Source: Escherichia phage CSP1C | Strand: one strand, 5' to 3' | Sequence record: PQ202980 | Length of the DNA: 55,550 nucleotides | Part shown: positions 2,925 to 53,886 of the stretch, one piece after another | Layout of the letters: the number at the start of each line of letters is the position of its first letter | Numbering within the stretch: the stretch's first letter is position 1 | Program-made: the position numbers and the translations under genes | The notes under the pieces: model-generated | What the model was told of the DNA's origin: nothing | Database searches by the model: none | What the model saw: the letters and a program-made list of their open reading frames with translations, nothing else

Positions 2925-3019
2925 TTGCAACTTCCAAATTGATTGGTTTATATTAACGAACACGGGGCTGGGACGGCTCAGCCCCAAAAACGTCACACGG
3001 GTGACAACGGAGATAAGAA

Positions 3020-5076: not shown

Positions 5077-5107
5077 GGCTTCACTCAACGCCGCGCTGTA
5101 GTATTTT

Positions 5108-5133
5108 GGGGACATTTATGTCCCCTCTTTTTT
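5108..5133 (+). terminator. rho-independent terminator after major capsid gene
   Basis: GGGGACAT..ATGTCCCC stem followed by TCTTTTTT. Confidence 0.7.
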
Positions 5134-5145
5134 AGGAGAACAACC

Positions 5146-5469
5146 ATGCGTTATCAACGTTATGAACGACATGACTTGATGGAAAAATCGTTGCAGGTGG
5201 AGCCAATTTCGATTACTCTCGATCCTGCTAAGATTGACACCACAACTTCAGAAGTAAAGACGGTTACTGTTAAAATAAACTTTGTCCCAGGCGGAACTAC
5301 AAACAAAGCGTATAGCGCGTCAGTTGACGGTTCCTCTGCTACAATTAAAGACAACGGGGACGGTACAATTACCGTGACCACAACCGCAAGCAGTGGTACT
5401 TCAAACTTGACAGTAACGTCCAAGGCAAAGGATAGTGTTACTGGTACATGTGTTATTAATGTGACCTAA
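5146..5469 (+). CDS. Ig-like (Big_2-type) domain protein, possible capsid decoration protein
   Basis: 107 aa, Thr/Ser/Val-rich beta-strand pattern (TVTVKINF..GTITVTTTASSG..LTVTSKA) typical of bacterial Ig-like domains; SD AGGAGA. Confidence 0.5.
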   Translation: MRYQRYERHDLMEKSLQVEPISITLDPAKIDTTTSEVKTVTVKINFVPGGTTNKAYSASVDGSSATIKDNGDGTITVTTTASSGTSNLTVTSKAKDSVTGTCVINVT

Positions 5470-5486
5470 AAAATAAGGATTAAACA

Positions 5487-6140
5487 ATGAAGACATTAAT
5501 TGAAGCATTGTTAGAACTTGATCCGGATAACCCGAATCATTGGACTAGCGACGGTCTACCTAAAGTTGACGCTCTGCGTTTCGCTACTGCTAACCCGTCT
5601 TTAACCCGCGACGATATTACAACTGCTGCTCCGCTGTTTACCCGCGATAACCGCGTGCTGGAAGAGCCAGAGGCAGTGGAACCTGTTAAATCTGCTGATC
5701 CAGTTTTACATGAAGCTGTCAAACAGGAGAAAGCTCATGAAGAACAAAAGAAAGTCGCGGTTGCAACGATGCAAATCGAAGTTAAGATTAGCGAAGCACT
5801 GCGTGCTCTTCTGGAGCCGGAAAAAATCGGTGACACTTCCAGCCTAAGCGATGAAGAGCTAAAAGCGAAGCGTGAAAAGCTTAGCAATGTGGTTAAAGAG
5901 ATTGCCCACACTAAGCACGCGCTGGAGCTCGCTATTGCAGACGTTCAAGCGGATCTGGATAAGATTATCGTTGAGCAGGAAAGTCGTCGTCCTAAGTCCG
6001 GTCTTACTGCAACTCAGATGTATCTCGAGGCGCAGAAAAAACGTAAACCTGAAGACATGCTTTCTGACCATCGCTTCCAGAACCCTATTGACGATCCGGT
6101 TGCCCGTATGGTTGCACGTAATATGATGCGTCGAGGTTAA
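5487..6140 (+). CDS. hypothetical head-associated protein
   Basis: 217 aa ORF with SD AAGGA, located in head module. Confidence 0.45.
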   Translation: MKTLIEALLELDPDNPNHWTSDGLPKVDALRFATANPSLTRDDITTAAPLFTRDNRVLEEPEAVEPVKSADPVLHEAVKQEKAHEEQKKVAVATMQIEVKISEALRALLEPEKIGDTSSLSDEELKAKREKLSNVVKEIAHTKHALELAIADVQADLDKIIVEQESRRPKSGLTATQMYLEAQKKRKPEDMLSDHRFQNPIDDPVARMVARNMMRRG

Positions 6141-8039: not shown

Positions 8040-8963
8040 ATGGCTACAGGTTCACGTTATTCGTGTTATTACGTCAAAGAAGATGTGAGCAACACAACTC
8101 CAGCAAGCGCGAAGTTTACCCCGTTTCGTGTAACGAGTTCCGGTCTGGATATTAACATTGCGACGCTGGAGTCTGAAGAACTGCGTGATGACGCAGAAAC
8201 CGCAGACTTCCGTCTTGGCGCTCGAAGCGTTGAAGGTACGGTAACAGGCGAAATGTCCTTCGGTACGTTTGACGACCTCATTGCGGCAGCACTGCGCGGT
8301 GAATGGCAGGACAACGTCCTTAAAGGTGGTATTGTTCGCCAGTCATTTACTTTTGTAGACTATAACGCAGATCTGCCATCAGGTAAATACACAATCTATC
8401 GCGGTTGTGAAGTTAACAGCATGACTTTCTCATTGTCTGCTGAAAACATGACCACAGTAGAGTTCGGCATTGTTGGTCGCTCGATGGAAATTGCTGAATC
8501 ACTTCCTGCTGGTGCTTCCATCAAAGCTCGTACAACTTCTTCACCGATGGACGGCTTCTCCGGTCGCTTGCTGGAAGGCGGTCAGGAAATTAGCGTTATT
8601 ACGGAAATCGGTCTTACCGTTGAAAACGATATCTCTCCGCGCTTCGTTGTTGGCTCGAAGTTCTCCATTGAACCGTCTGCTGGTCGCCGTGCTGTAACTG
8701 GTACAGCTAACGTTTACTTCCTGGATAACAAACTGCGTAAGAAGTATCTGGATGAAGTGGAAACTTCAATCAAGTTTGATCTGATTGACCCAAGCAATCC
8801 GCAACAAAAATACACTGTGGAAATCCCTCGCGTGAAATTCACAGAGGCTCCGCGTCCTATTGACGGTGAAGGCGATATCATGCTTAATATGGGCTACCGC
8901 GGATTGCTGGACCCAACAACCGCAAGTTCCATCAAAATTACCCGCGTTTTAGCGGCAGCATAA
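8040..8963 (+). CDS. major tail (tube) protein
   Basis: 307 aa ORF directly upstream of chaperone and tape measure genes. Confidence 0.6.
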   Translation: MATGSRYSCYYVKEDVSNTTPASAKFTPFRVTSSGLDINIATLESEELRDDAETADFRLGARSVEGTVTGEMSFGTFDDLIAAALRGEWQDNVLKGGIVRQSFTFVDYNADLPSGKYTIYRGCEVNSMTFSLSAENMTTVEFGIVGRSMEIAESLPAGASIKARTTSSPMDGFSGRLLEGGQEISVITEIGLTVENDISPRFVVGSKFSIEPSAGRRAVTGTANVYFLDNKLRKKYLDEVETSIKFDLIDPSNPQQKYTVEIPRVKFTEAPRPIDGEGDIMLNMGYRGLLDPTTASSIKITRVLAAA

Positions 8964-8972
8964 GGATAAGAA

Positions 8973-9380
8973 ATGACCGACACCAAAAAAGCCAAAGTTG
9001 CAGTAGCTAAAAGCTTCCGTGATTTTAAAACTGTGAGCCGGGCAAATGATCCGGCAAACACTAAGCCTATGAATGTGGTTATTCCTGGTGTAGGCGACAC
9101 TGGCGAAAAACTCTACATTCGTAGCCGTTACTGCACAGAGTATCGTGACGCAGAATTGAAAGCACAACGTCAACTGTTGGCACTTATGCAGGGTAAAGAC
9201 GGGGAAGTAACGGATGCTATGAAGGAAGACATCCTTACCCGTTCACTGTGTAATCTTGTAGCAGGTTGGACGTTTGACGAGCCTCCAACCGTTGACAACG
9301 TGTTTGAGTTCTTAACGGAGAACCCAACTGTCCGAGAAGACCTTAACGTATTTGCCGCTAAAGATAGTAATTTTTTCTAA
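8973..9380 (+). CDS. tail assembly chaperone (G-like)
   Basis: 135 aa ORF between major tail and tape measure; ends ...AAT TTT TTC TAA with slippery heptamer T_TTT_TTC. Confidence 0.6.
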   Translation: MTDTKKAKVAVAKSFRDFKTVSRANDPANTKPMNVVIPGVGDTGEKLYIRSRYCTEYRDAELKAQRQLLALMQGKDGEVTDAMKEDILTRSLCNLVAGWTFDEPPTVDNVFEFLTENPTVREDLNVFAAKDSNFF

Positions 9381-9778
9381 AAGCGCGCAGACAGTTAATT
9401 GATAAGAAGATCCTCCAATGGGAACTAAATAGTAAAGTCCCCGGCGGGGGATCTTCTTTATTATCGCAACTGCAAAAGGTTGAGGAACAGTCTGGTAAGA
9501 CGCCACCTAAGCTTAAAGAATATCGGGAAAAGGAAATACCGATTTGCTTCGAATATCTATCTACTTTATTTGATGATATCTACACTGGAGGAGATTTTAG
9601 TTATACAGAATTGCACAGCTATCAAGTGACAATGGGCTTACATCTTCAACCGTACGAATGCGAAATACTGCGGCAGCTATGGCTTGAAAAGCGCGTGTCA
9701 GAAGCTGAACAAAATGCTAAACTCATGGAAAGTCAAATGCAAAATCAAAATAAAGGTAGAAGAAAAAGGAGAAGATAA
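9371..9778 (+). CDS. tail assembly chaperone -1 frameshift extension (GT-like C-terminal part, no own start codon)
   Basis: Open -1 frame of about 135 codons with no ATG, starting at the slippery site and ending at TAA overlapping the tape-measure ATG (TAATG). Confidence 0.55.
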   Translation, partial: FFLKARRQLIDKKILQWELNSKVPGGGSSLLSQLQKVEEQSGKTPPKLKEYREKEIPICFEYLSTLFDDIYTGGDFSYTELHSYQVTMGLHLQPYECEILRQLWLEKRVSEAEQNAKLMESQMQNQNKGRRKRRR

Positions 9779-12700
9779 TGGCCGAAACCGCTTCGCTAGT
9801 AATCAGAGTTGACGCGAGAGGGATTAGTACCGCGGACTCTATGTTGCGGAACTTAGCGCGTACAGGTGACACAGCGGAGCGGTCTGCTCAACGTGTTACC
9901 TCCAGCTATAAAACATTGTCTAACACATCTAACGAACTTGCAACTGTCACAAGTCGTTTAGATGCTGCAATTGTAGGAATGATTAGCGTCGACACCATTA
10001 ACCGTGTTATTTCGCTATCGGACTCCTGGACCATCCTTACCAACAAACTTGAACTAGCTCGTATGGGTAATGAAACCGTTGCGGATTCCCAGCAACGCGT
10101 GTTTGATATTGCCCAGCGTTCGCGTACAAGCTTAGAAGCGACTGCAACTCTGTACTCCCGTCTCCAGCGTGCGATGAAGAATACTGGTATGACTGGTATG
10201 GAGCTTGGACGTATCACGGAAACAATCAACAAAGCAATGATCGTTTCTGGTGCAACATCCCATGAAGCAAGTGCTGCCCTTATTCAGTTTTCGCAAGCAA
10301 TGGCATCCGGTGTTCTGCGTGGGGATGAATTCCGTTCTGTTGCAGAACAAGCCCCGCGCTTAACTCAAATTATGTCCGATTCGTTAGGCGTTACCATTGG
10401 ACAATTGCGTGAACTGGCCTACAGCGGCAAGTTAACCGCAGATGTGGTTATCAAATCGTTGTCTGGTGCCGCGGATACAATTGATAAAGAATTCAGCCGC
10501 ACTATGCCAACGTTCAACCAGCAATGGACGGTTGCAACAAACAACTTGACTAAGTTTATGGGTGAATCCCAAAAGACTCAAGGTGCTGTTGCTGCATTGG
10601 GACAGACGTTTGTTGCTTTATCCGAAAACTTAGGAACGGTTGTAACGGTTGGTTCAGCTTTAGCCACAGTGATTACCGCCCGTATCATCACGGCAATGTT
10701 GGCCAAGACTAAAGCGTCTATAGCTGCTGCAAAAGCATCTCAGATGGAAGCTGCACAAACTGCGGCAACTACGGCGGTGATGCAAAGCTCTATTGGCGTT
10801 ACCGCACAGAAAGCGGCGGCGGATCGTGCTGCTTCGCTTGCATCTTTGCAGGTTGCACGCGGTGCGTTAGCGGTTGCTAAGGGTACGGCAGCGGAAGCAG
10901 GTGCTCGTCTTGCTCTTATTAATGCTACCCGTGCGCATTCCGCAGCAATTATGGCGGACGTACAAGCGCGGCAAGCACTCAATGCTGCGCTTAACGCAAC
11001 CGTACCAGCGGCAAGCCGGGCAGCTACAGCAATGAGCGTGCTGCGCGGGGCTATGGGGTTAATTGGTGGTCCTGTTGGTGTAGCAATGCTGGCAGCGGGT
11101 GCAATTTACTCCTATAAAGCGTCGCTGGAAGCTGGTCGTGCGGAAAACAATCAGTTTGCAGATAGTGTTGATAGTGTACGCGAAAAACTGATGCAAATGA
11201 CGGAAGCTCAGCTGGCAGCTAACGCTGTCAAAGCTAGAGCAATCCTTCCGGAACTTGAAGAGCAAATGAAGCGCGAGCAAACCGCTCTTAAATCTGCAAC
11301 GGAAACGCAGAAGTTCTATGAAGCACAATTGAAGCGTCGAGCTGCATCCGGTCGAGATACTGCTAGTGCGGAAAAGAACTTACAGATTGCTACGGATAAC
11401 GTCAAGCTAGCTGCTGAACGCGCGGAAGACGCACAACGTCGATATAACAATGTGCTTGAAATGACAAGCCCCGCTATCGAGAAGATAATCCCGTTAGCTC
11501 GTCAGCTTGCTGCTGATATGAAGGCTGTTCTTAACATCAAATCCGGTCCGCTTATTGACGAGAAAGTTCTTGATCGTTTTAAAACTCAGCTAGGTGACGT
11601 TAACCGTGAGATTGACGTTAACACTGTTAAGGGTGCTGGTAATGCTCGTCAATCTGCAATCCTTAGAGGTCTGTATCAAACACTAGGTAAAGATGCAGAC
11701 ACCTACGGAAGTCTGATTCGCAAAGTAGCTATGGGTCAGGACGTTAGCTCAGAGGCAACAAGCGAGTCCGCTAAAGAGCTTGTTAAATATGCTCAAGATT
11801 TAGCCCAAGCTCTTGGCAAAAACTACGATCTTGAAGAAGCAGAGAGAAACCGGACTAAAGCTACAAAAGACGCTATTAAGGCAGATCAACAAAACGCTAA
11901 GGTTATTGACGATTTACGAAACAAGCTTAACGAAGTAACCACAGGGGTTAAGGAAAACGCCAAAGCGAAAGCGCAAGCGGTAGCACTTAATAAGCTCAAT
12001 ACGTCTGCAACCGCCGTGGAAAAAGCGGAAGTTGTTAGACTTGCTGCTGCAATCTACGATGCAGAAGAAGCTCAAAAGAAACTGGACGAGCGTAAGAAGA
12101 ATCGTAAGTTTGCTCAGGGTCTGTTAGATGAAGGTATGACAGACTATGAAAAAATCGCGTACGAGCAAAATACAAAGATTGCAGAGCTTAATGCAAAACA
12201 GCGAGCTGATGATTTAGCTTACTATCAGCTTTACGAAGATGCTAAAACCCAAGTCCTGAAGAAAGCAAGCATGGAAAGGGAAAATCTGGATAAAGTTCTT
12301 ATGAACCGAATGATATCCTTTTCTCAGGAATCCTTAGGCATTATAATGGATGGACTGTCACAGGCTGTAAGCCAGCAGAACTTCTTTTATAAAGCTATGT
12401 TTGCAGCACAGAAAGCAATGCAAATCCCGTCAATCCTTGCCAACACGGAAACGGCAGCATCCGCGGCGCTTGCATGGGGTACACAGCAAGGCGGTGCTAC
12501 AATGGGCGCAACTATGGCGGCTATAGTGAAAACTATGGGTTATGCGTCAGCCGCTACTGTGGGTGGCTTAGCAATTGCTGGTATGGCTCACGACGGTATT
12601 GATAACGTTCCGCGTGAAGGTACATGGTTGCTGGATAAGGGTGAACGTGTACTTAATGCTCCGTCCAATGACAAGTTAAATCGCTTCCTGGATAGCCAAG

Positions 12701-12894
12701 CTTCACAACAAGGTGGCGTGAATATGTCCGGTGGTGTTAGCATTGTTCAGTATATCACGGTGCAAGGAAATGGCGATGCAGCACTCACACAAGCCATGCA
12801 AAAAGCAGCCCGTGATGGCGCTGAGCAGGGATATAATAAAGTTCTTAATGACTTTGCATCCCGAGGAACAATTCGTAGAACTGCAATGGGGTAA
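9778..12894 (+). CDS. tail tape measure protein
   Basis: 1038 aa, Ala/Gln-rich helical protein, SD AAGGAG, classical position. Confidence 0.85.
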   Translation: MAETASLVIRVDARGISTADSMLRNLARTGDTAERSAQRVTSSYKTLSNTSNELATVTSRLDAAIVGMISVDTINRVISLSDSWTILTNKLELARMGNETVADSQQRVFDIAQRSRTSLEATATLYSRLQRAMKNTGMTGMELGRITETINKAMIVSGATSHEASAALIQFSQAMASGVLRGDEFRSVAEQAPRLTQIMSDSLGVTIGQLRELAYSGKLTADVVIKSLSGAADTIDKEFSRTMPTFNQQWTVATNNLTKFMGESQKTQGAVAALGQTFVALSENLGTVVTVGSALATVITARIITAMLAKTKASIAAAKASQMEAAQTAATTAVMQSSIGVTAQKAAADRAASLASLQVARGALAVAKGTAAEAGARLALINATRAHSAAIMADVQARQALNAALNATVPAASRAATAMSVLRGAMGLIGGPVGVAMLAAGAIYSYKASLEAGRAENNQFADSVDSVREKLMQMTEAQLAANAVKARAILPELEEQMKREQTALKSATETQKFYEAQLKRRAASGRDTASAEKNLQIATDNVKLAAERAEDAQRRYNNVLEMTSPAIEKIIPLARQLAADMKAVLNIKSGPLIDEKVLDRFKTQLGDVNREIDVNTVKGAGNARQSAILRGLYQTLGKDADTYGSLIRKVAMGQDVSSEATSESAKELVKYAQDLAQALGKNYDLEEAERNRTKATKDAIKADQQNAKVIDDLRNKLNEVTTGVKENAKAKAQAVALNKLNTSATAVEKAEVVRLAAAIYDAEEAQKKLDERKKNRKFAQGLLDEGMTDYEKIAYEQNTKIAELNAKQRADDLAYYQLYEDAKTQVLKKASMERENLDKVLMNRMISFSQESLGIIMDGLSQAVSQQNFFYKAMFAAQKAMQIPSILANTETAASAALAWGTQQGGATMGATMAAIVKTMGYASAATVGGLAIAGMAHDGIDNVPREGTWLLDKGERVLNAPSNDKLNRFLDSQASQQGGVNMSGGVSIVQYITVQGNGDAALTQAMQKAARDGAEQGYNKVLNDFASRGTIRRTAMG

Positions 12895-12897
12895 TAT

Positions 12898-13482
12898 ATG
12901 CTCACTTGGCCCGAAGAAATTAGACCTTCCGAGATGGAATGGTATCTTGTTTCAAACTCTGTTGAATTTACAAGCCCCTTTAATGGGGCTTCACAAACTG
13001 TGTCCTATCCTGGGTCACGATGGGAAGCGACCTTAACATTTAGCAATTTAAATGACTGGCAATCCAGAAAGCTTGAATCAACGTTAGCTAAGCTTGACGG
13101 TAAAGCTGGTCGTATTATGCTTCAAGATTTTGGTCGTTGGGGACGAGCACCGATTGGATCACCTGTGGTTAATGGCGCAAACAATACAGGGACAACTTTA
13201 TCAACTAAAGGTTGGACACCTAACAGAAAGGTTTTATGGGAAGGGGATTACATCGCAGTAAATAATGAATTAAAATTAATAACCGAAGATGCTTGGAGCG
13301 ATTCTTCTGGTAACGTGATTTTAAATATTGCCCCAATGCTGAGGACCATTCCACCAAACGGGGCTAAAATTGAAACTCAAAAGCCACAAGGAGCTTTCCG
13401 TTTATCTGACAATACTAACGGAGTTAAGCGTCAACCAGCATTTAATAACTCATTTACTTTAAAATTCTCGGAGGCGTTCTAA
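12898..13482 (+). CDS. minor tail protein (M-like / distal tail)
   Basis: 194 aa ORF directly after tape measure. Confidence 0.5.
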   Translation: MLTWPEEIRPSEMEWYLVSNSVEFTSPFNGASQTVSYPGSRWEATLTFSNLNDWQSRKLESTLAKLDGKAGRIMLQDFGRWGRAPIGSPVVNGANNTGTTLSTKGWTPNRKVLWEGDYIAVNNELKLITEDAWSDSSGNVILNIAPMLRTIPPNGAKIETQKPQGAFRLSDNTNGVKRQPAFNNSFTLKFSEAF

Positions 13483-14066
13483 TGCTATTCAGTCCTTTCA
13501 GCGATACGCTTCTTAATGCAATGGAGCAGCCAAACGTTAGTTTGGTCCTTGCTGCGGAAATCGACTTTCCTTCTGGTGTAACGCGTGTACATACTGGGAC
13601 AGGTGTTGTTGTTATTAACGGTCAAACGTTCCTAGGCGTCGGCACACTTGGCGACGTAGGATCTGTAACGGAAGAAAACAGCACGAGTTCCAGCACAATG
13701 TCCATGGCGTTAAGCGGTCTGGACATGAGTCTTGTCGGGGAAACGTTAAACGAAGAAGTTATCGGGCGCAATGTTGTTTGTTATATTGCGGTAATGAACG
13801 ATCAAGGTAACGTTACCGCTGCCAATGTTTTATTTGAAGGTTTTATTACGGATACAGCGTTACAAGCAGGTCAACAGAATGCACTGAGTTATGTTATTTC
13901 CAACGTGTTTGAGCGTTGGTCACAAGGTTTACCGGATCGCTATACGGATGAAAGTCAACAGCGTTTATATCCGGGCGACCGTTTCTTTAGATATATTGCA
14001 CAAATGGCTGAACGTTCAATCTTTTGGGGGAGTAAAAAAGATGCGCCAGGGTTCTCCTATGAGTAA
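13482..14066 (+). CDS. minor tail protein (L-like)
   Basis: 194 aa ORF, SD GGAGG, start overlaps previous stop. Confidence 0.5.
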   Translation: MLFSPFSDTLLNAMEQPNVSLVLAAEIDFPSGVTRVHTGTGVVVINGQTFLGVGTLGDVGSVTEENSTSSSTMSMALSGLDMSLVGETLNEEVIGRNVVCYIAVMNDQGNVTAANVLFEGFITDTALQAGQQNALSYVISNVFERWSQGLPDRYTDESQQRLYPGDRFFRYIAQMAERSIFWGSKKDAPGFSYE

Positions 14067-14475
14067 GTTGCCAGGCTGGCAGACACGTTTATTAACCACA
14101 GTAAAGGAGTTGTCATCGACTCCTTTTTCTTGGGGTGAAAATGATTGCTGCACCTTCGCGGCAAAATGTGTTGATGCGCAATACGGAACAAATATCTACG
14201 AACAAGTCGCTGGAAAATATAGTACAGAGCTTGGAAGTAAAAAGTTCACTATTGAAAGAGTTGGAACCGCTTACCTTCCATTGTTATTGGATACATATCT
14301 GAGCGAACGCGTTGACAAGAACTATGCGCAAAGAGGCGATGTGGTTACATTTGAGGGAGCATTGGGCTTAACTGCTGGCATATTATGGACTGGATATGTA
14401 TGGGCTATGGGCCCGAACGGTGTGGAAACATTCCCGCTTAATAAGATCAAAATTACGGATATTTGGAGGGTCTAA
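14059..14475 (+). CDS. minor tail protein, putative NlpC/P60-like (K-like)
   Basis: Start ATG 14059 overlaps upstream stop; product begins MSKLPGWQ and contains WGENDCCTFAAKC with candidate catalytic Cys. The track's longer ORF from 13891 is rejected. Confidence 0.45.
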   Translation: MSKLPGWQTRLLTTVKELSSTPFSWGENDCCTFAAKCVDAQYGTNIYEQVAGKYSTELGSKKFTIERVGTAYLPLLLDTYLSERVDKNYAQRGDVVTFEGALGLTAGILWTGYVWAMGPNGVETFPLNKIKITDIWRV

Positions 14476-17400
14476 TGCCACCAGCAATAATTGGAGCAGC
14501 GATAGCTTTAGGTGCGTCGGCTGCTGCTGCGGCTAGTATTATTTCGGCTACTACCGCTCTCGTTATCGGTATTGCTGCAACTGCGGCAGGTGCTCTTTTA
14601 ACTAAGACACCAAATATGAACTTTGATGCTTACAAGGGGCAGCAAGAGCGTAAACAGGTTCTGCGTGCGGCTACAGCGTCACGCTCTGTTGTATATGGCA
14701 CGACCGTAGCGTCCGGACTATTAGCATTTGCGGAGGAAGAAGCTGGAGATCAAGATGAAGGTGAATGGATGCATCTTGTTGTTGTTCTTGCTAGTCATAA
14801 ATTGGAAGGTATTGAAACAATTTGGTTGGGTGATGACGGAATTGATTGGTTTGGTGAAAACGCTACTTGGGAGTTTCATAACGACCGTCAGACTGTTGAC
14901 CCATTCATGTTAAGACATTGTCCTTCCTGGAAGAATGATATGATTGGCAAGGGTATTGCATGGCTACGTTTAAGCTTAAAGTTTGATGCTGAAAAATTCC
15001 CATCTGGTTTGCCAAACGTCAAGGTGTTGAAAAAGGGACGTAGAGTCTATGACCCACGTTCCGGTCAAACTGTCTTTAGCGATAACGCTGCTCTTGTTAT
15101 TCTTGATTATTTCCGCACGTATTTGAAGCGCAAAGACGAGAATATTAACTGGGACCAATTCAAGGAAGCTGCTAACATCTGCGATGAGTTTGTTACTAAC
15201 GCAGATAACACTACGGAAAGACGCTACCGCATTAACGGTGAGTTTGAAGTGGATGAAGCACCTGCCAAAATCCTTGATGCTATGCTTGAAGCTTGCGGCG
15301 GGGAGCTTACCTATATTGGTGGTAAACACGGTCTGTTAGTTGGTGCTTATTACGGTCCAGCTACCATGACTCTGGATGAAAGCTGCATTGCTGGGGACAT
15401 TAAGATTATCCCTGAGACATCTTATAAAGAGCGCACCAATACCATTACAGGCACATTTGTTGACCCGAAGCAAACATACGCTGAAGCAGATTTCCCTCCA
15501 GTTGTGGTTAAGGAATGGGTGGAAAAAGATGGCGGCGAAATAACGCAAGACATGGATTTCCGCTTTGTTACAAGTGAATATCAAGCTCAACGTCTTGCTA
15601 ATATTATTTTACGTCGTAAGCGTGTTGGTCGAACAATTGAAGTGCCGTGTAACATGAAGGGGTATAAATTCCGCCCGGGCATGTATGTCAACGTGACAAT
15701 TTCAAATATTGGAATGAAAAATGTTGAGATGCGCGTCACTAAATGGTCATTCGATCCTAAAGGTGGGATTAATCTTGTCCTTCGTCAAGACTTCCTGGAA
15801 ATGTGGGACGACGCTATTGGTAAACCAATGGAGCGCCCGGATCTGGTAGACCTTCCGTCTGGTGCTATTGCTCAACCGCAAAACCTTCAGTATCAGGCAT
15901 TGCAGATTAGCGATGTTGTGCAGGGTGTTTTAACGTGGAGCAATATTGGACAGGTAGCGTATAACCGCGTAGCCGTGCGACAGGGAGGTACAACGGTTTG
16001 GACCGCACAAGTCCCTGGCCAAAATGTTCGCGTTACTGGGTTGCTGCGTGGCGCGTATACAGCGCATGTTCAAGCGGTAGCTTATAGCGGAGCAATATCG
16101 CCGGAAGCATATCTGGAATTCAATATTCAAGCACCACCTCCGCCAACTTCTATTGAAGTGCAACAGGGTTACTTTGCAATAACATTGATACCTAAATCCG
16201 CAGATATTGCAAACGTTAGCACGCAATATGATTTCTGGACGTCCGGTGAAACAAGATTGTCTTCCGTATCTACGGATATTGTGGAACGAGAAGCAACTCG
16301 TAAAGGTATGGGTACAACATGGACTTCAGAAGGCTTGAAGAATGACCACACTTATTACTGGTATGTTCGCACTATCAACGCTTTTGGATCGTCTGCATTT
16401 GTAGAAGTAGCTGCATTGTGCTTCACAACCGCTACAGACCTAATGCCACAGATTGATTCTGAGTTCAAGAAGACGGAGACTTATAAAGAGCTTACTGCTG
16501 AAATTACAGGTGTTAAAGACGGTGTTACCCAACTCAGCCAAACTGTAGTAGATACAGAAAAGCGTTTAAGTCAAAGTGTTAGCAACGTTCAGCAGAGTGT
16601 TATTACTTTGGACGGAGTTGTTCAGGATCAGGGTGTTACCATCAATGAGCAAGGGCAACTTATTGATGCACAGGGCCGATTGATTGATACGCAAGGTAAA
16701 ACTATTCAGCAAGTTAGCGCGACTGTACAGGAGACAAGTAAAGCAGTCGTAGATCTGGAAGGTAATGTTAACGCTCAATGGGGTGCTAAAGTACAGGTTG
16801 ACAGTAAAGGGCAAAAATACGTTGCTGGTATCCAGTTGGGTATGGAAGGTTCAGGCGGTGCTGTACAATCTTACTTCATGGTGAGCGCTAACAACTTTGC
16901 TATCTATAACCCGACAAACAGCGTAGCAGAACTGGCATTTGCTGTTAAGAACGGTCAAGTGTTCATGAAGGCTGCGTTTATTGAAAATGGTACTATTGAC
17001 AGCGCTAAAATTTCAAACCAAATTCAGTCAACCAACTACGCTAACAATAGCGCGGGTTGGATGATCAACAAGAACGGTAGCGCTCAGTTTAACAACGTGA
17101 CCATACGGGGTACGGTATACGCTAACAACGGATCTTTTACAGGAACAGTGAACGCAACAAGCGGTAAATTCACTGGTACTGTGGAAGCTACCAGTTTTGT
17201 GGGGGACGTTGCGAATATGTACACAGGATCTGACGTTAGCAGGTTAAAAGATGGCGTACTGGAAAAAACAATTACATACAACGATACATCTAACGCAGCG
17301 TACAGACGACACATCTGCGTTATGGCAAACGTTAAAGGTTTTGGTGGCTGCACAATAGCTATCGGAAGTTCAGAAAAATCCCTTTCTATGAGAGGCGACG

Positions 17401-17543
17401 AGCGCCTTGTTATGCATTCAGCGGCAATAACTACCAAGAGCGTTACAGTTAAAATTAAGGTATCCGCTCAAAATAGTAAGGGGGCTTATATAAATTCACC
17501 GACCGTCATTGTGTCGCGCGGTTCTGGTTCATTCTCAGGATAA
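14475..17543 (+). CDS. central tail fibre / host specificity protein (J-like)
   Basis: About 1020 aa ORF at the end of the tail module; ATG 14475 with SD GGAGGG (track start 14463 is TTG); hydrophobic Ala-rich N-terminus; followed by terminator. Confidence 0.7.
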   Translation: MPPAIIGAAIALGASAAAAASIISATTALVIGIAATAAGALLTKTPNMNFDAYKGQQERKQVLRAATASRSVVYGTTVASGLLAFAEEEAGDQDEGEWMHLVVVLASHKLEGIETIWLGDDGIDWFGENATWEFHNDRQTVDPFMLRHCPSWKNDMIGKGIAWLRLSLKFDAEKFPSGLPNVKVLKKGRRVYDPRSGQTVFSDNAALVILDYFRTYLKRKDENINWDQFKEAANICDEFVTNADNTTERRYRINGEFEVDEAPAKILDAMLEACGGELTYIGGKHGLLVGAYYGPATMTLDESCIAGDIKIIPETSYKERTNTITGTFVDPKQTYAEADFPPVVVKEWVEKDGGEITQDMDFRFVTSEYQAQRLANIILRRKRVGRTIEVPCNMKGYKFRPGMYVNVTISNIGMKNVEMRVTKWSFDPKGGINLVLRQDFLEMWDDAIGKPMERPDLVDLPSGAIAQPQNLQYQALQISDVVQGVLTWSNIGQVAYNRVAVRQGGTTVWTAQVPGQNVRVTGLLRGAYTAHVQAVAYSGAISPEAYLEFNIQAPPPPTSIEVQQGYFAITLIPKSADIANVSTQYDFWTSGETRLSSVSTDIVEREATRKGMGTTWTSEGLKNDHTYYWYVRTINAFGSSAFVEVAALCFTTATDLMPQIDSEFKKTETYKELTAEITGVKDGVTQLSQTVVDTEKRLSQSVSNVQQSVITLDGVVQDQGVTINEQGQLIDAQGRLIDTQGKTIQQVSATVQETSKAVVDLEGNVNAQWGAKVQVDSKGQKYVAGIQLGMEGSGGAVQSYFMVSANNFAIYNPTNSVAELAFAVKNGQVFMKAAFIENGTIDSAKISNQIQSTNYANNSAGWMINKNGSAQFNNVTIRGTVYANNGSFTGTVNATSGKFTGTVEATSFVGDVANMYTGSDVSRLKDGVLEKTITYNDTSNAAYRRHICVMANVKGFGGCTIAIGSSEKSLSMRGDERLVMHSAAITTKSVTVKIKVSAQNSKGAYINSPTVIVSRGSGSFSG

Positions 17544-17547
17544 AAAC

Positions 17548-17578
17548 AACCCCGCTTCGCGCGGGGGTTTCTTTTAGT
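17548..17578. terminator. bidirectional rho-independent terminator between tail fibre and lipoprotein genes
   Basis: CCCCGC ttcgc GCGGGG stem followed by GTTTCTTTT; convergent genes on both sides. Confidence 0.65.
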
Positions 17579-17807
17579 AGTTAGCTACACAGTTTGAAGG
17601 TGAACCAATTCGTCGGTATTCATGATCAATCTCATGGCACCATTGTCCAGTCATTGGAAGCTTTTCGGTATCATAAATTAAAGAACCGTTACCATCACGG
17701 TCTAACGGTTTTGGAATAACGCCGGAATTAGGTTTACCAGTATTCAGACCGTTACCACATGCAGCGAGGGATAAAGTTAATGCAAGCATAATTAAAGCGC
17801 GTTTCAT
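17574..17807 (-). CDS. small lipoprotein, candidate superinfection-exclusion protein
   Basis: ATG 17807 with SD AAGGAG; signal peptide MKRALIMLALTLSLAAC with lipobox LAAC; convergent with the fibre gene. Confidence 0.55.
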   Translation of the reverse strand: MKRALIMLALTLSLAACGNGLNTGKPNSGVIPKPLDRDGNGSLIYDTEKLPMTGQWCHEIDHEYRRIGSPSNCVANY

Positions 17808-17891
17808 TGGGAACTCCTTTTGTGTTGTTGTCAAGGTTCAATTCTAATATACTTGTTGTGTTGAGTAAGTCAAATAAATGTGGGAGATATT

Positions 17892-18062
17892 ATGGCAACT
17901 CGTTTACGTGGTACTTTAGTTGATGGTTTAAATAAACCAATTGTCAACGCTACAGTTGCGCTTTTAGCAAAAGGGAATAGCTTATTGGTATTGTCCGGCA
18001 GTGAAGCTATCTTTAAAACAAGTGCAACCGGAACAACCTGTAGAAGCTCGCGAACATATTAG
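17892..18062 (+). CDS. small ORF with transthyretin-like N-terminal signature (possible gene remnant)
   Basis: 56 aa starting MATRLRGTLVDGLNKPIVNATVAL; SD GGGAGA; another open frame continues to about 18165. Confidence 0.3.
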   Translation: MATRLRGTLVDGLNKPIVNATVALLAKGNSLLVLSGSEAIFKTSATGTTCRSSRTY

Positions 18063-18151
18063 TCCGTGGCCACCAATGATTGATCAGGAAGTTTTGCAGC
18101 CAAAGACCGCTCAAACGGTCCCTCAGAAACCGGAGCAGAAGGTAAAACCAA

Positions 18152-18436
18152 ATGACGAAGAATGAAGGTATTGATAAAGTTGTTGAAGGACTTTCTATTC
18201 GTGCTCATGTTATAGCAGATGAAGGTCATGATCAACTTACTATTATGAAATCCGCATTCAGCGATTTCAAGTCGCTTGGAAACTTAAGCGGGTTAATGAC
18301 TGTGGTGTCGACCGGAAAATTAACCCAGCAGCAAATCAGTCTAGCTCAGCGTATTGCTGTTAAAGTTATTGCGGTACTTGGGATGATTGAAGCTGAAAAG
18401 CCCAGTTCCAAGCAGGATAACGAAAGCGACCTTTAA
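18152..18436 (+). CDS. hypothetical protein
   Basis: 94 aa ORF with plausible SD. Confidence 0.45.
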   Translation: MTKNEGIDKVVEGLSIRAHVIADEGHDQLTIMKSAFSDFKSLGNLSGLMTVVSTGKLTQQQISLAQRIAVKVIAVLGMIEAEKPSSKQDNESDL

Positions 18437-18447
18437 GGAGGTCTACT

Positions 18448-18651
18448 ATGTGTGGTAATACTAACCGTTGCTGTTTAGGCAGTCCTGCAACACAAGCAGG
18501 TATACTTCAGGGGCAATTGGCTCAAGCAGCGTGTAATTGCAAGACGTTTCAACCAGTAGCGCCAACTCCGGTGTTTGTGAATGCTTTTGCACCGCCTGTT
18601 TTCAATACTTTTGGCGTATACCCATACGGTGCTTTCTTTCGTATATTCTAA
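18448..18651 (+). CDS. Cys-rich small protein
   Basis: 67 aa with 5 Cys and an aromatic/Pro-rich C-terminus; strong SD AAGGAGG; followed by terminator. Confidence 0.5.
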   Translation: MCGNTNRCCLGSPATQAGILQGQLAQAACNCKTFQPVAPTPVFVNAFAPPVFNTFGVYPYGAFFRIF

Positions 18652-18655
18652 GAAG

Positions 18656-18683
18656 AGAAAAGGGGCAAACGCCCCTTTCTTTA
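18656..18683. terminator. bidirectional rho-independent terminator
   Basis: AAAGGGGC aaac GCCCCTTT stem with flanking A/T runs between convergent genes. Confidence 0.65.
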
Positions 18684-18962
18684 ACGCTTATGAAAAGCTG
18701 ACAGGATTGCAAGTGTTACAGCACCCAATCCGACGACGGTAGCATAAGTGAGTTGATGTTGAACTTTAACAAAACCGTAATAGGTGCTAGGGATCTCCAC
18801 AATCCCAAACGCCATAGCAAAGCTGGTTCCAAGCAGTGCGACAGCAAGGGCGCGTAATAACGCCCTGCTCATTGCTGTGAAACCTTTCTCGTTACTGTCT
18901 CCGGTCATTATAACCACAATAATAAGAAACAGCGCAACAATTACTAGCAAGTATTCCATCAA
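18681..18962 (-). CDS. small membrane protein (2-3 predicted TM helices)
   Basis: 93 aa, hydrophobic stretches LLVIVALFLIIVVIM and AVALLGTSFAMAFGIV. Confidence 0.5.
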   Translation of the reverse strand: MMEYLLVIVALFLIIVVIMTGDSNEKGFTAMSRALLRALAVALLGTSFAMAFGIVEIPSTYYGFVKVQHQLTYATVVGLGAVTLAILSAFHKR

Positions 18963-19165
18963 CGTCTTCTCCTGTACATGTATTGATCATAAGTAGTTGC
19001 AATAATAGTGACTGGCCAGCAAGCGAGTATACATAGAAGACTTACAATCTTCTCCCAACGTTTCTTATAGGCTAGCGCATAATCATAGTTATTCCAACAA
19101 AAGAAATAAGTCATTGCTGCAATCACAGCACCAATAATGAAATAAATAACTACATATTCATTCAT
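18959..19165 (-). CDS. small membrane protein (2 predicted TM helices)
   Basis: 68 aa, hydrophobic helices, C-terminal RRRR; start overlaps downstream stop. Confidence 0.5.
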   Translation of the reverse strand: MNEYVVIYFIIGAVIAAMTYFFCWNNYDYALAYKKRWEKIVSLLCILACWPVTIIATTYDQYMYRRRR

Positions 19166-19353
19166 TTAGTAAACTCCCATTCTAAAGTATTACGATAGCT
19201 TGATGGTACATAACGCCCAGGGCGTGGATCAAAACTTTTCACTGAAAATTCCAGCGTTCCAGCGCTATATAGTTGTACTTTTTGCCCGTCCCACGGTCCA
19301 CCAATTAGCTTAAAAGTCTGTCTGTAACCTTTTGCTGCTCTAGCCATATTCAC
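19162..19353 (-). CDS. hypothetical protein
   Basis: 63 aa ORF in the same minus-strand run; overlapping start/stop. Confidence 0.4.
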   Translation of the reverse strand: MNMARAAKGYRQTFKLIGGPWDGQKVQLYSAGTLEFSVKSFDPRPGRYVPSSYRNTLEWEFTK

Positions 19354-19390
19354 TCCTTAAAATACCCGCGCGAACGCGGGTATTATTTTA

Positions 19391-19597
19391 TTACGCTTCC
19401 GGTGATTCCGGAGTTGGCTCATCTGGAACAACAATAACGTCGGCTAAAACCTTTAACGCTTCTTGTTGCTCAGCGGTCATATTATTCCAGTAATAGACGT
19501 GAATGTAAACTACTGGTTTGTCACCATGTTGCCACGGTTCGCGACTTACTACATCCACACCTAAATCGCTTGCTACGCTCTTTTCTTTACCAGCCAT
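19391..19597 (-). CDS. hypothetical protein
   Basis: 68 aa ORF; hairpin 19362-19385 downstream. Confidence 0.4.
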   Translation of the reverse strand: MAGKEKSVASDLGVDVVSREPWQHGDKPVVYIHVYYWNNMTAEQQEALKVLADVIVVPDEPTPESPEA

Positions 19598-19629
19598 GCT
19601 AATATACCCCTTTAAGGTTTTACACGCGG

Positions 19630-19923
19630 CTAGCCCCCAAAAGCACCCCTATGATCAAGGGTTCTAATGCGCTGCTCCAGCCAACGTGCGTTCTTTTCAA
19701 AATGTTTATTGGTACGCGCTGCTTTGCACGCATCAATAATACCTAACTCACATCCAAGCTGCGTTTGTCCCATCACGTAAGAATGAGTTAACATGCTGGA
19801 TACAAGGTCTTCACATTGTAACTTAATAGGATGGTCTTGGCATAGTTTCTTTGCTGCATCTTTTAAATCCACAGCTTGGACACCAGGCGCTATCAGCAAA
19901 GTTACGAGTAATAAACGTTTCAT
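19630..19923 (-). CDS. secreted/periplasmic Cys-containing protein
   Basis: N-terminal signal peptide MKRLLLVTLLIAPGVQA; 4 Cys in mature part. Confidence 0.5.
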   Translation of the reverse strand: MKRLLLVTLLIAPGVQAVDLKDAAKKLCQDHPIKLQCEDLVSSMLTHSYVMGQTQLGCELGIIDACKAARTNKHFEKNARWLEQRIRTLDHRGAFGG

Positions 19924-20207
19924 TATGCTTTCCCTTTACGACATAAGGCTTGAAGTTCCAGAAGCGCATCAATGTCTTCCTGTGGAGTTACACCAACGTG
20001 AATTGGATATTTAGCGCGACATTCGTAGCCAACTTCAACAGTGTGGTTAATGTAGCCGTAAACACATCCACCAATAACAATGAAGATAAGCGCAACAATC
20101 ATTGTAAGGTATTTACCTTGTTTGCGTTCTTCATTTTGTTTATTAAGCTGACGGTTAAGTTCCGCCGCGTCAATTTTACCTTTATTGTAATCGTCTACTA
20201 AGCTCAT
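19923..20207 (-). CDS. membrane-anchored protein (single TM)
   Basis: ATG 20207 with SD GGAG (track start 20279 rejected); TM helice LTMIVALFIVIGGCVYGYI. Confidence 0.45.
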   Translation of the reverse strand: MSLVDDYNKGKIDAAELNRQLNKQNEERKQGKYLTMIVALIFIVIGGCVYGYINHTVEVGYECRAKYPIHVGVTPQEDIDALLELQALCRKGKA

Positions 20208-20232
20208 TTTGCATCTCCTCTTGTTGTATGCA

Positions 20233-20261
20233 TATATTAAAACAGACCCGCGAAGGGTCTG
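20233..20261 (-). terminator. terminator-like hairpin after polymerase gene
   Basis: CAGACCC gcgaa GGGTCTG stem followed on the minus strand by TTTTAATAT. Confidence 0.45.
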
Positions 20262-20271
20262 CAAGTAGAAT

Positions 20272-22257
20272 TTAGGCATATCCCATGTCTTCGAGATACT
20301 TCTCTGCTTTAGCTATATAAGCATCATAATCTATGTCGTCCGGTATTTTATCCGGTAGCGTCATGATTGGGACACCTCCCGCGCTACCAGCTACACGGTT
20401 GCCCGAGTTAGCATAGATTATTTCGGGAGTTTCTTCATTGGTGCTTAAATACCAGCGTACAACCTTACCCAAAAATTCGCCATTCCATACCGCGCCGCCT
20501 TTCACCGCACGTAGGATAATGAATTTTCTAATATCGTTGCAATTGCGTATAGTACGAGAAACAGGCGTACCGTGGGCCAAACATTCACATACAGCTTCCA
20601 TAATAATTTCACCAGTACAGTTCTTTTGAAGCCCTGTTTTCGCGAACCAGCCTTTACGTTTAATTTCAACATTTCCTTCCTCATCAGGTTCTTTTACTGC
20701 AACATAGTTATTGACGTTAGCACTGTACAGCTTGTCATAGTAGTTGGATTCCATTTCAAAGCCTGTCACAGACTCCCACCACTTGATCATGTTATCAACG
20801 AAGTCCTGCATGTGGTCAGGATACTTAACCACAATACCATCCGTGTTAGCTGAAATTACTTTAACACCGTTCAGCTCAAACGCTTCAATGAGCATTAACA
20901 GCGATAGCTGTCCGGTGATAGTTACCTGTATCAATAATTGCGGCGCGTACAATACAGACCACATTGAACCCAATTTACCGAACGATCCGTTGATTACGAT
21001 CTTCAGCGTGTTGGCTGTGTTCTTGTCCCCTGAGTGCTTAGCCGCAATACGACGGTCTACAATGCTTTTATAAACACGAAGGAACGCTGGTCCCAACTGT
21101 TCGGGGTATAAGCCCTGATTAAGAATAATTGAAGGGTAATAGGACGTTACGTCAATGTCCCGCTTCTTAATACCGGGCTCTTTACCGTGACCAGCACACT
21201 CTTCGGAGCTATGCAAACCGCCAATACCCATACGGTACACACCGTCCGCAATCTTGATTTCAAGGCCTGTTAACGCTGGGGGCAAGCTAACGCCACCGTT
21301 ATCGCTAACAACAAAGCGGCAGTCCCGAACAATATCCAAAACACTATTCATCAGAGGTGTTTGAAAACGAATAAAGTCCGGTATGTTATACGCATACTTT
21401 GTTCCAGGATAAACTTGTGGACGCTGGGGACGCACACCAGTTAACGCTTGAATTTCGTGTTTAATTACGTCTTCTGCAATCTGCGCATCAGAACGTGAAC
21501 GCAGATCCACACCGTATTCTTGCGACATAATTTCACGAAGGTGCAAAGGCTCTTGCAATGCAATAAAACATTCTTCCGTCTGTACAAGGTCGTTAATACA
21601 GTACCAGCGTACAATCAACATCTGGTCCTGCGTCAACATTGTATTTGGCTTGAACGGTAAATCCTGCATACGGCGAGTATGTACACGTCCGCCATATTGT
21701 TTCAAACCACCGGACCCAGGCAGCACTTCCATAATATCAATGTGGTTAACGTTCTGCATACGCTTAAGGCGGTAACTCTTCAACACATCAGAAGGACGCC
21801 AGTCTTCAACGATTATCTTATCGGTTGCATCTTTAAGCTGAGCATTAGAGCAGCCGTTAAGCGCAAGCGTAGCAATTGGCATATCGTACCCGTTACCGTT
21901 AAAGCTTACGATAAGGAAGTTTGTCATTATCCAGTTAAGTAACAAGCAATTCAAACTACAACCGTGATACATTTCGAAGTAGACAACTTTCTTAGTCCGT
22001 ACTCCGCGAAACGCGATTAAGAAATAGTTTGGATAACATTCAATATCGTATACAAGCGGTTCGCGGTTAATCCATGCTTGAATAAGTTCGTCCTGCGTAT
22101 ACAGGTTGTATTGGAAGTTCCGCGCTTCCTCTAAGTTTGGCAGATAATCCGGACGTTCCCAAGTGCGCTCCGGCGGTAAACGCTTAACCTTTTCTTTCTT
22201 TGCTTTTGGCTCAGGCGGTAAGTCCTGCCAAAAGAAACCAATAGCATCTGTCCGCAT
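20272..22257 (-). CDS. DNA polymerase, family B
   Basis: Motifs DVTSYYPSIIL (motif A type), KIVINGSFGKLGS (motif B type), ISANTDGIVV (motif C type); ATG 22257 overlaps upstream stop. Confidence 0.8.
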   Translation of the reverse strand: MRTDAIGFFWQDLPPEPKAKKEKVKRLPPERTWERPDYLPNLEEARNFQYNLYTQDELIQAWINREPLVYDIECYPNYFLIAFRGVRTKKVVYFEMYHGCSLNCLLLNWIMTNFLIVSFNGNGYDMPIATLALNGCSNAQLKDATDKIIVEDWRPSDVLKSYRLKRMQNVNHIDIMEVLPGSGGLKQYGGRVHTRRMQDLPFKPNTMLTQDQMLIVRWYCINDLVQTEECFIALQEPLHLREIMSQEYGVDLRSRSDAQIAEDVIKHEIQALTGVRPQRPQVYPGTKYAYNIPDFIRFQTPLMNSVLDIVRDCRFVVSDNGGVSLPPALTGLEIKIADGVYRMGIGGLHSSEECAGHGKEPGIKKRDIDVTSYYPSIILNQGLYPEQLGPAFLRVYKSIVDRRIAAKHSGDKNTANTLKIVINGSFGKLGSMWSVLYAPQLLIQVTITGQLSLLMLIEAFELNGVKVISANTDGIVVKYPDHMQDFVDNMIKWWESVTGFEMESNYYDKLYSANVNNYVAVKEPDEEGNVEIKRKGWFAKTGLQKNCTGEIIMEAVCECLAHGTPVSRTIRNCNDIRKFIILRAVKGGAVWNGEFLGKVVRWYLSTNEETPEIIYANSGNRVAGSAGGVPIMTLPDKIPDDIDYDAYIAKAEKYLEDMGYA

Positions 22258-53850: not shown

Positions 53851-53855
53851 CTGAT

Positions 53856-53877
53856 GGGGCGTCAGCCCCTTTTTATT
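53856..53877 (+). terminator. terminator/attenuator-like hairpin between endolysin-like gene and holin
   Basis: GGGGC gtca GCCCC followed by TTTTTATT. Confidence 0.5.
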
Positions 53878-53886
53878 GGAGGGAAC

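Follow-up and report, generated by a model that had tools for sequence, protein, structure and literature searches.

Convergent operon ends, a deletion scar and eight small genes between the tail and replication genes of Escherichia phage CSP1C

Two convergent operon ends and a deletion scar

The stretch of DNA between positions 17807 and 20207 of Escherichia phage CSP1C (sequence record PQ202980; the window analysed here is the whole record of 55,550 nucleotides, nt) lies between the tail and the replication genes and had been interpreted, in a sequence-only reading, as a single accessory island of nine small open reading frames (ORFs). Our analysis reveals a different architecture: two transcription units of opposite direction run into each other here, one on the plus strand that extends from the tail genes and one on the minus strand that extends from the replication genes. 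The stretch is made up of their distal ends, with a terminator between them, and is not one island. The best overall explanation, to which we assign a probability of roughly 0.85, combines these convergent operon ends with the deletion scar of CSP1C and eight real small genes with an inferred role at the cell envelope. The deletion has already been published, and the remaining genes are catalogued as hypothetical proteins.

On the left side, a bidirectional intrinsic terminator (17550-17566, both strands) follows the J tail-tip gene and a lipoprotein gene; it was flagged on both strands (hairpin -13 to -16 kcal/mol, z -2.7 and -3.5) and is annotated as bidirectional in phage Seurat. The convergent units are separated by another bidirectional terminator (18658-18679, both strands) with T-runs on both strands and a hairpin of -16 to -19 kcal/mol (z -3.3 and -4.3), which our scan flags on the minus strand and which is annotated on both strands in Seurat; the sign of the GC skew flips at this point. 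The intrinsic terminator on the right side, which follows the DNA polymerase gene (20242-20262, minus strand; hairpin -13.6 kcal/mol, z -3.6), possesses a T-run on the minus strand and lacks one on the plus strand. The proposal that bidirectional terminators bound the stretch is therefore correct for the left side only, and even there the terminator lies 240 nt outside the proposed start, with the lipoprotein gene in between. A further GC-rich hairpin is found between the genes gp27 and gp26 (19361-19384): a perfect stem of 10 bp that directly abuts the Shine-Dalgarno ribosome-binding site of gp26, has -16 kcal/mol and a z of only -1.5, and is possibly an attenuator or a stability element. The scan flagged this hairpin as a plus-strand terminator, although both neighbouring genes lie on the minus strand. 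The GC content of the region (0.42-0.44) equals that of the genome (about 0.44), hence there is no compositional sign of a foreign origin. Promoter-like sites in the region number eight, against 9.8 expected in shuffled sequence, the promoter scan revealed no convincing promoter upstream of gp29, and a repeat scan of the region returned pairs at chance level only. The full layout of a moron, with its own promoter and terminator, is restricted to the neighbouring lipoprotein gene.

A megablast search with positions 17000-21000 led to the genus Seuratvirus (Queuovirinae), with KS_W4 (97.9%), GottfriedDienst and Seurat as the best matches; each match was fragmented, as the relative possesses 1.5-2.5 kb of extra DNA compared to CSP1C. 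The 55,550-bp genome is that of CSP1C, or of a sequence identical to it, a clear-plaque mutant of the virulent Seuratvirus CSP1. Kim & Ryu (J Microbiol 2025, PMC13577005) described CSP1C as a spontaneous clear-plaque mutant with a genome of 55,550 bp, which has lost 4,672 bp between two 14-bp direct repeats (GTGCAACCGGAACA), possesses two novel ORFs in the resulting 274-bp scar, one of 171 bp (56 amino acids, aa) and one of 90 bp (29 aa), and additionally differs from CSP1 by one base in CSP1_029. Their antiholin module CSP1_020-022 and the locus analysed here are the same object, given that genome length, repeat, deletion size, scar ORFs and the CSP1_029 base all agree. The repeat occurs as a single copy in CSP1C, on the plus strand at 18022-18035, which is the deletion junction, whereas the CSP1 record KY982929 possesses two copies exactly 4,672 bp apart; identity to this record is 100% over 13303-18035 and 99.9% over 18022-19629. 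Slippage or illegitimate recombination between the two repeats has eliminated the 4,672 bp, which comprised most of CSP1_020 (the lateral tail fibre gene), CSP1_021, CSP1_022 and most of CSP1_023.

Both ORFs of the scar are remnants on the plus strand, and their sizes agree with those published. Scar ORF 1 (CSP1C_020, 17892-18062; a GTG-started frame begins at 17880) is composed of the first 44 codons of CSP1_020, the repeat and an out-of-frame part of CSP1_023, and is 100% identical to CSP1 up to 18035. Its 56-aa junk product still matches a tail fibre family over residues 1-48 (phrog_4128, E=4.9e-14) and shows a weak similarity to phage_tail_N, but these 44 codons are all that is native, and a complete shaft, the receptor-binding part and the C-terminal chaperone domain are missing. 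Scar ORF 2 (CSP1C_021, 18076-18165) represents the last 29 codons of CSP1_023 with an identical C-terminal sequence, and its stop still overlaps the start of the following gene, CSP1_024.

The two genes that follow on the plus strand are intact. CSP1_024 (Seurat gp22, 18152-18436; here 024, and likewise for its neighbours) encodes a soluble four-helix protein of 94 aa and is the orphaned fourth gene of a cassette located downstream of the fibre gene. The overlap of its start (18152) with the stop of the 023 remnant (18165) has the same arrangement in CSP1, CAjan, SLUR76, STP-SP5, yong3, JenP1, DanielBernoulli and eiAU-183, and homologs of 024 are present in 161 phage records. CSP1_025 (Seurat gp23, 18448-18651) is preceded by a strong Shine-Dalgarno sequence (AAGGAGGT) and encodes 67 aa with five cysteines, a conserved N-terminal motif MCG..CCLGSP.TQ.G.LQ and a tail rich in Pro and Phe; it belongs to phrog_25697, of unknown function, and has homologs in STP-SP5, yong3 and 9NA.

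Six genes on the minus strand form the tail of the DNA polymerase operon and are arranged in three translationally coupled groups: gp29+gp28, gp27, and gp26+gp25+gp24 (Seurat names; inferred CSP1 numbers in brackets). The gene most distal from the polymerase, gp24 (CSP1_026, 18681-18962), encodes a protein of 92-93 aa with three transmembrane (TM) segments, a conserved YYGFVK.QHQLTYA motif and a terminal HKR; homologs exist in 9NA-like phages, Sashavirus and eiAU, where the gene is likewise convergent to the 024 homolog. Its start is overlapped by the stop of gp25 (CSP1_027, 18959-19165), which encodes 68 aa with two TM segments and an RRRR C-terminus, and whose start is in turn overlapped by the stop of gp26 (CSP1_028, 19162-19353), a basic soluble protein of 61-63 aa with an invariant LIGGP.DG. 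The gene gp27 (CSP1_029, 19391-19597) encodes an acidic protein of 68 aa with a net charge of -7. The product of gp28 (CSP1_030, 19630-19923; 97 aa) is a predicted periplasmic protein of predicted helical structure, with a cleavable signal peptide (cleaved between MKRLLLVTLLIAPGVQA and VD) and four invariant cysteines that are kept even in the 30%-identical homolog of a Hafnia phage. Finally, gp29 (CSP1_031, 19923-20207), whose stop overlaps the start of gp28 by 1 nt, encodes 94 aa with a single TM segment, which is predicted to separate a conserved N-terminal domain in the cytoplasm from a C-terminal domain in the periplasm; the latter contains two conserved cysteines.

A concatenated tblastn search found the six-gene set in about 35 Seuratvirus records only, with the exception of the 3-TM gene, which extends to 9NA-like phages, Sashavirus and eiAU. 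In the Nonagvirus JenP1 the 024 homolog directly adjoins the convergent DNA polymerase gene and the whole set is absent, which shows that the set is genus-specific. Within the genus, gp26-gp29 occur in every Seuratvirus examined, except that gp27 was undetected in yong3, and they share 79-100% identity among the E. coli Seuratviruses; STP-SP5 and yong3 have no 2-TM gene gp25, and VogelGryff has a truncated copy of it and no 3-TM gene gp24. Identity to the homologs of a Salmonella and a Hafnia phage is 67% and 30% for gp28, 47% and 42% for gp29, compared to 92% and 80% for the DNA polymerase gene (polB), from which we infer that the six genes diverge faster than polB between host genera. The families are very small: word-indexed homolog searches yielded three clusters for gp28, among 5.8 billion proteins, and nine for gp29, the latter confined to Seuratvirus-like contigs, and an exhaustive HMMER profile search of 1.8 billion representatives gave four matches to gp28, three of them genuine clusters. 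The fourth, P0057 (998 aa), was discarded as a spurious repetitive ORF without any Pfam domain.

The segment 19500-20600, which extends from the 5' part of gp27 through gp28, gp29 and the polB terminator into the final 330 nt of polB, is 97-99% identical among nine E. coli Seuratviruses, compared to 92-95% in its flanks, and the synonymous divergence (pS) of gp28 and gp29 is 0.035-0.05, i.e. 4-6 times below that of polB (0.23). This low divergence points to either a sweep by recent recombination or a constraint that acts on the nucleotide sequence itself.

The single-base difference in CSP1_029 can also be traced. The CSP1 record KY982929 carries an additional T (TTGTTTGC vs TTGTTGC, around 19464-19470), which cuts the protein to 59 aa, whereas the 68-aa allele of CSP1C is the intact consensus form of the other Seuratviruses (ten compared; 94-100% identity, full length). 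The published account reads the 68-aa form as the mutant one (PMC13577005); our comparison shows that it is the CSP1 record that carries the frameshift. Either CSP1 has a frameshift (or a sequencing error) in CSP1_029, or CSP1C has reverted it.

All eight genes are under purifying selection. Summed against nine E. coli Seuratviruses, the ratio of nonsynonymous to synonymous divergence (pN/pS) is 0.02 in 024 and in 025, 0.07 in gp24, 0.21 in gp25, 0.17 in gp26, 0.10 in gp27, 0.27 in gp28 and 0.31 in gp29, with 0.02 in polB, and each gene matches a PHROG family end to end, all of them of 'unknown function'. ORFs that are so short (63-97 aa) and have no function in the databases might be regarded as chance reading frames in a non-coding spacer. 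This is extremely improbable: pN/pS values of 0.02-0.31 combined with many synonymous changes already refute chance ORFs for the eight genes, and homologs in Salmonella, Hafnia and 9NA-like phages retain the reading frames at 30-79% amino-acid identity. The genes are also equipped with Shine-Dalgarno sequences, and some of them overlap start to stop; junk is limited to the two ORFs of the scar. The sequence-only reading had therefore placed its nine ORFs correctly, and eight of them are real genes, while the first (17892-18062) is the stump of a tail fibre gene. The features it described are confirmed as well, namely three hydrophobic segments in the 93-aa protein and two in one of 68 aa, a signal peptide and four cysteines in the 97-aa protein, one TM segment in the minus-strand protein of 94 aa and five cysteines in the 67-aa protein. 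Its statement that none of the products resembles core phage functions fails for scar ORF 1; the eight others have no match of known function.

The post-fibre cassette and its recurrent loss

In its intact form the cassette comprises the lateral fibre gene, 021 (about 700 nt), 022 (about 360), 023 (about 530), 024 (285) and 025 (204), and this order is found in CSP1, CAjan, SLUR76, the Salmonella phage STP-SP5 and the Hafnia phage yong3. Homologs of 021-024 follow the tail fibre gene in the same order (tblastn) in the Nonagvirus JenP1 (60-79% amino-acid identity), the Tlsvirus DanielBernoulli (59-72%) and the Edwardsiella phage eiAU-183 (Eiauvirus; 42-56%). As the full cassette is common to other genera, it represents the ancestral state, and 024 and 025 of CSP1C are orphaned survivors of a cassette whose upstream genes include the lysis-suppression set.

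The 9NA-like phages possess 023, 024, 025 and the convergent 3-TM gene between the terminase and portal genes, with no fibre gene, 021 or 022. In 9NA itself (4947-6108) these four genes form one block, with at most 79% amino-acid identity in 9NA-like phages, and in eiAU-183 (2502-3485) the 3-TM gene likewise lies next to the 024 homolog and converges on it. The shared arrangement points to a mobile block or to a functional link among its genes.

The intact CSP1 locus (the equivalent of 17892-18651) served as the reference for a comparison of twelve Seuratvirus loci. At least seven phages (KS_W4, Seurat, SHIN8, KS_A3, phiG7, WildeMaa and VogelGryff) bear independent deletions with differing end points and an imperfect microhomology of 6-19 nt at the break points. 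The 'tail fiber protein' gp21 of Seurat is an in-frame fusion of the N-terminal part of the fibre with the last 58 residues of 023, and in SHIN8 the fibre gene is fused to 021. VogelGryff and KS_A3 have no 024 and 025, phiG7 has lost 024 and the first codons of 025, and GottfriedDienst has no 021 and a fragmented fibre gene. The interval between the fibre gene and 025 is thus a deletion hotspot. A loss of the cassette during isolation and propagation is plausible, because the fibre is not needed on E. coli K-12, which lacks O-antigen, and because lost lysis suppression yields clear plaques.

A well-known parallel exists in phage lambda: laboratory lambda has lost its side tail fibres through a frameshift in stf, present in lambda PaPa compared to Ur-lambda. 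There, too, a dispensable lateral fibre gene was inactivated during propagation on K-12, and the N-terminus of the CSP1C fibre belongs to the same phage_tail_N family as the lambda side fibre. In contrast to the stf frameshift, the event in CSP1C is a 4.7-kb deletion mediated by repeats, which also removes lysis-timing genes and alters the plaque type.

Lysis suppression and possible roles at the envelope

The consequences of the deletion are known from the published work on CSP1C (PMC13577005). Lysis suppression is abolished, side fibres are absent in transmission electron microscopy, plaques are clear, and adsorption, latent period (25 min) and burst size (about 170) are unchanged; the receptor of CSP1 is named as LamB. 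Together, 020, 021 and 022 are necessary and sufficient for lysis suppression, and co-expressed with holin and endolysin in BL21 they suppress lysis with no requirement for 024 and 025; CSP1_021 is a protein with one TM segment that binds the holin. A CRISPR deletion of CSP1_029 left the plaque turbidity unaltered. Except for this knockout, the study leaves aside the surviving genes 024 and 025 and the six minus-strand genes. The case resembles the antiholins rI and rIII of T4 with their r mutants and LydB of P1, in which likewise small TM or periplasmic proteins control the holin and the loss of the antiholin leads to clear plaques. However, no sequence or fold similarity to these systems was found, the effect in CSP1 does not depend on superinfection and needs three genes, and the genes that remain in CSP1C do not delay lysis by themselves.

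What, then, do the eight remaining genes contribute? Our tentative reading, held at clearly less than even odds, is that they encode accessory factors that act on the envelope of the infected cell, where they may either fine-tune the timing of lysis or protect against superinfection, neither of which we prefer. We base it on export signals, fast evolution, natural losses and the finding of these genes in virulent phages only. An envelope location is predicted from a signal peptide, TM segments and conserved pairs of periplasmic cysteines, and four of the six minus-strand products would be exported or inserted into the membrane. The natural losses in relatives and the knockout of CSP1_029, which has no plaque phenotype, indicate that the genes are at least partly dispensable. 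A more elaborate version, in which gp29 (anchored in the membrane, with a cysteine pair in the periplasm), gp28 (secreted, with two disulfides) and gp26-gp24 would form an undescribed envelope system for lysis timing or exclusion and the mobile block of 023-025 and the 3-TM gene would cooperate with the CSP1_021 antiholin, is unlikely as a whole.

Several observations weigh against an accessory role at the envelope. Scans of the nine proteins with Pfam, NCBIfam and PADLOC returned nothing above threshold. The AlphaFold (AF2) model of gp28 is of low quality (pLDDT 55), and the matches that Foldseek gave for it carry no meaning; the model of 024 is good (pLDDT 90, four helices) and, apart from its own family, has no significant fold match in PDB or BFVD. 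CSP1C has retained the eight genes and yet lyses on time with clear plaques (PMC13577005), which shows that these genes alone do not delay lysis, and 020-022 suffice for suppression in the absence of 024 and 025 (same study). The SLUR phages are reported to be consistently clear-plaqued (PMC5758909), although SLUR76 has an intact cassette from the fibre gene through 021, 022, 023 and 024 to 025 (8555-13807); the role of the cassette in lysis suppression may depend on the fibre allele or on the host. Moreover, gp26-gp29 are near-invariant across E. coli Seuratviruses with differing receptor modules, which argues against a receptor-specific exclusion, a role that fits the neighbouring lipoprotein instead. 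Weak resemblances of the 024 model to four-helix NTP-pyrophosphatase-like and ribosomal L29-like folds were non-significant. A profile of gp28 had no match among PDB sequences, and a search of the literature yielded no relevant paper on the virion proteome of CAjan.

Other interpretations of the locus have to be weighed against this. The membrane proteins could be lysis regulators that belong with the deleted antiholin cassette, with gp24 and gp25 as holin/antiholin paralogs and gp29 and gp28 as a sensor pair similar to RI of T4. Class I and class II holins have a characteristic size and layout, which gp24 and gp25 approach: gp24 fits an N-out/C-in topology with a short basic C-terminus and gp25 ends in RRRR. 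Both genes adjoin the published antiholin genes, and 023-025 are accompanied by the 3-TM gene in three groups of phages. We nevertheless consider such a function unlikely, given that there is no holin match in Pfam, PHROG or NCBIfam and that BLASTP against the phage's own holin (53854-54231) gave nothing below E=12. CSP1C retains gp24 and gp25 and lyses normally with a latent period of 25 min, 020-022 alone suppress holin-endolysin lysis in BL21, and in VogelGryff neither multi-TM gene is intact (gp25 being truncated). The two genes are located about 34 kb away from the lysis cassette. A double start (MM) of the 3-TM protein, which could have suggested a dual-start antiholin, is confined to the E. 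coli phages, and the idea was dropped. For 024 and 025, a role as assembly chaperones or components of the lateral tail fibre comes to mind, since in four phage groups they follow the fibre gene immediately and in the same orientation and are very strongly conserved (pN/pS 0.02). This is improbable and was rejected on context: the full-length fibre CSP1_020 (PF08400, E=4.9e-22) combines phage_tail_N with a Peptidase_S74 domain, i.e. its own intramolecular chaperone, KS_A3 has a full-length fibre gene of 3,087 nt and yet no 021-024, and in 9NA, 023-025 are located between the terminase and portal genes, in a neighbourhood devoid of a fibre gene, 021 and 022. Furthermore, the small four-helix protein 024 does not resemble the known chaperones of the Tfa type. 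Both 024 and 025 are probably partners of 023 rather than fibre chaperones.

A single horizontally acquired, moron-type island that serves defence, anti-defence or exclusion as a unit is closest to the sequence-only reading, and we rate it as somewhat less likely than a set of lysis regulators. In its favour, the products are small proteins of no known function that are secreted or located in the membrane, terminators flank the region, Nonagvirus lacks the six-gene set, some of the genes vary in presence, and the block of 023-024-025 and gp24 also occurs in the unrelated 9NA-like phages. Small envelope proteins that block secondary infection are indeed known from virulent phages, such as Imm and Sp of T4, Llp of T5 and Cor of T1. 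The products of gp24-gp29 share with them the size class, the predicted envelope location (membrane, periplasm or lipoprotein) and the origin from virulent phages, but have no homology to these or any other described exclusion protein in the PHROG, Pfam, PADLOC and NCBIfam searches, and gp28 and gp29 do not co-vary with the receptor module. The two convergent units with an internal bidirectional terminator, the origin of the left part as a scar of the tail fibre gene, a GC content like that of the genome, the presence of gp26-gp29 throughout the genus and the lack of PADLOC matches all contradict one acquired unit. With the exception of the lipoprotein gene next to it, nothing of the region was found on E. 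coli chromosomes and plasmids (5,426 complete E. coli genomes gave no match to the right of 17950), which argues against a moron island of the prophage type. What survives of the term 'accessory' is that small envelope-directed genes exist outside the lysis cassette. Presence/absence variation, proposed as a check, is seen in 024, 025, gp24 and gp25, whereas gp26-gp29 are not variable in the genus (apart from gp27 in yong3). A relation to virion or lysis components, named in advance as the result that would contradict an accessory nature, is seen at the leftmost scar, which has lost a lateral fibre and lysis-suppression genes; 024 and 025 are members of the cassette to which these belonged, and the eight genes are non-structural.

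The neighbouring receptor locus and the meaning of the deletions

Immediately to the left of the stretch, a minus-strand gene (17574-17807; Seurat gp20, inferred CSP1_019) encodes a lipoprotein of 77 aa with the lipobox LAAC, followed by G. It matches phrog_12984 'lipoprotein' (E=6e-53), has a pN/pS of 0.13 and is preceded by its own sigma70-like promoter-like site (17873-17846). The segment that covers the C-terminal domain of J, the bidirectional terminator and the 3' end of the lipoprotein gene (17089-17676) is shared with lambdoid mEp phages at 75-90% nucleotide identity, and a segment composed of the lipoprotein gene, its promoter region and approximately 60 nt from the start of the fibre gene (17570-17950) is present in prophages of 50 of the 5,426 E. 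coli genomes at 60-95% identity, including that of Nissle 1917. The segments within 17089-17950 are pieces of receptor modules that virulent and temperate phages exchange. According to the BASEL papers, exclusion factors are encoded at the locus where this lipoprotein gene sits, which is also the place of factors of the Llp/Cor type; the lipoprotein gene is a moron at the receptor-binding locus, and its product is a probable receptor-blocking exclusion factor.

Elsewhere in the genome, the lysis cassette is present where it had been placed by the sequence-only reading (53.4-54.9 kb; 53.1-54.9 kb in our analysis) and comprises an endolysin, a 3-TM holin and nested spanins. A scan for tRNA genes and an Rfam search at the gathering threshold over the whole 55.5-kb genome found none. 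A local rise of the GC content at 33-34 kb (0.555 vs about 0.44) is due to the long low-complexity C-terminal tail, rich in Gln, Ala and Pro, of a 289-aa ORF on the minus strand (33553-34422).

Part of what appears as a gene island in CSP1C is thus a laboratory artefact of known origin, and the direction of the reported mutation in CSP1_029 has to be corrected, as the CSP1C allele is the consensus form. The six ORFan genes on the minus strand represent a compact and tractable set for finding new envelope-directed phage functions. For the genus as a whole, the recurrent deletions mean that many reference Seuratviruses are probably devoid of their native side fibres, of the lysis-suppression genes or of both, which affects comparisons of host range and plaque phenotype as well as those made for phage therapy.

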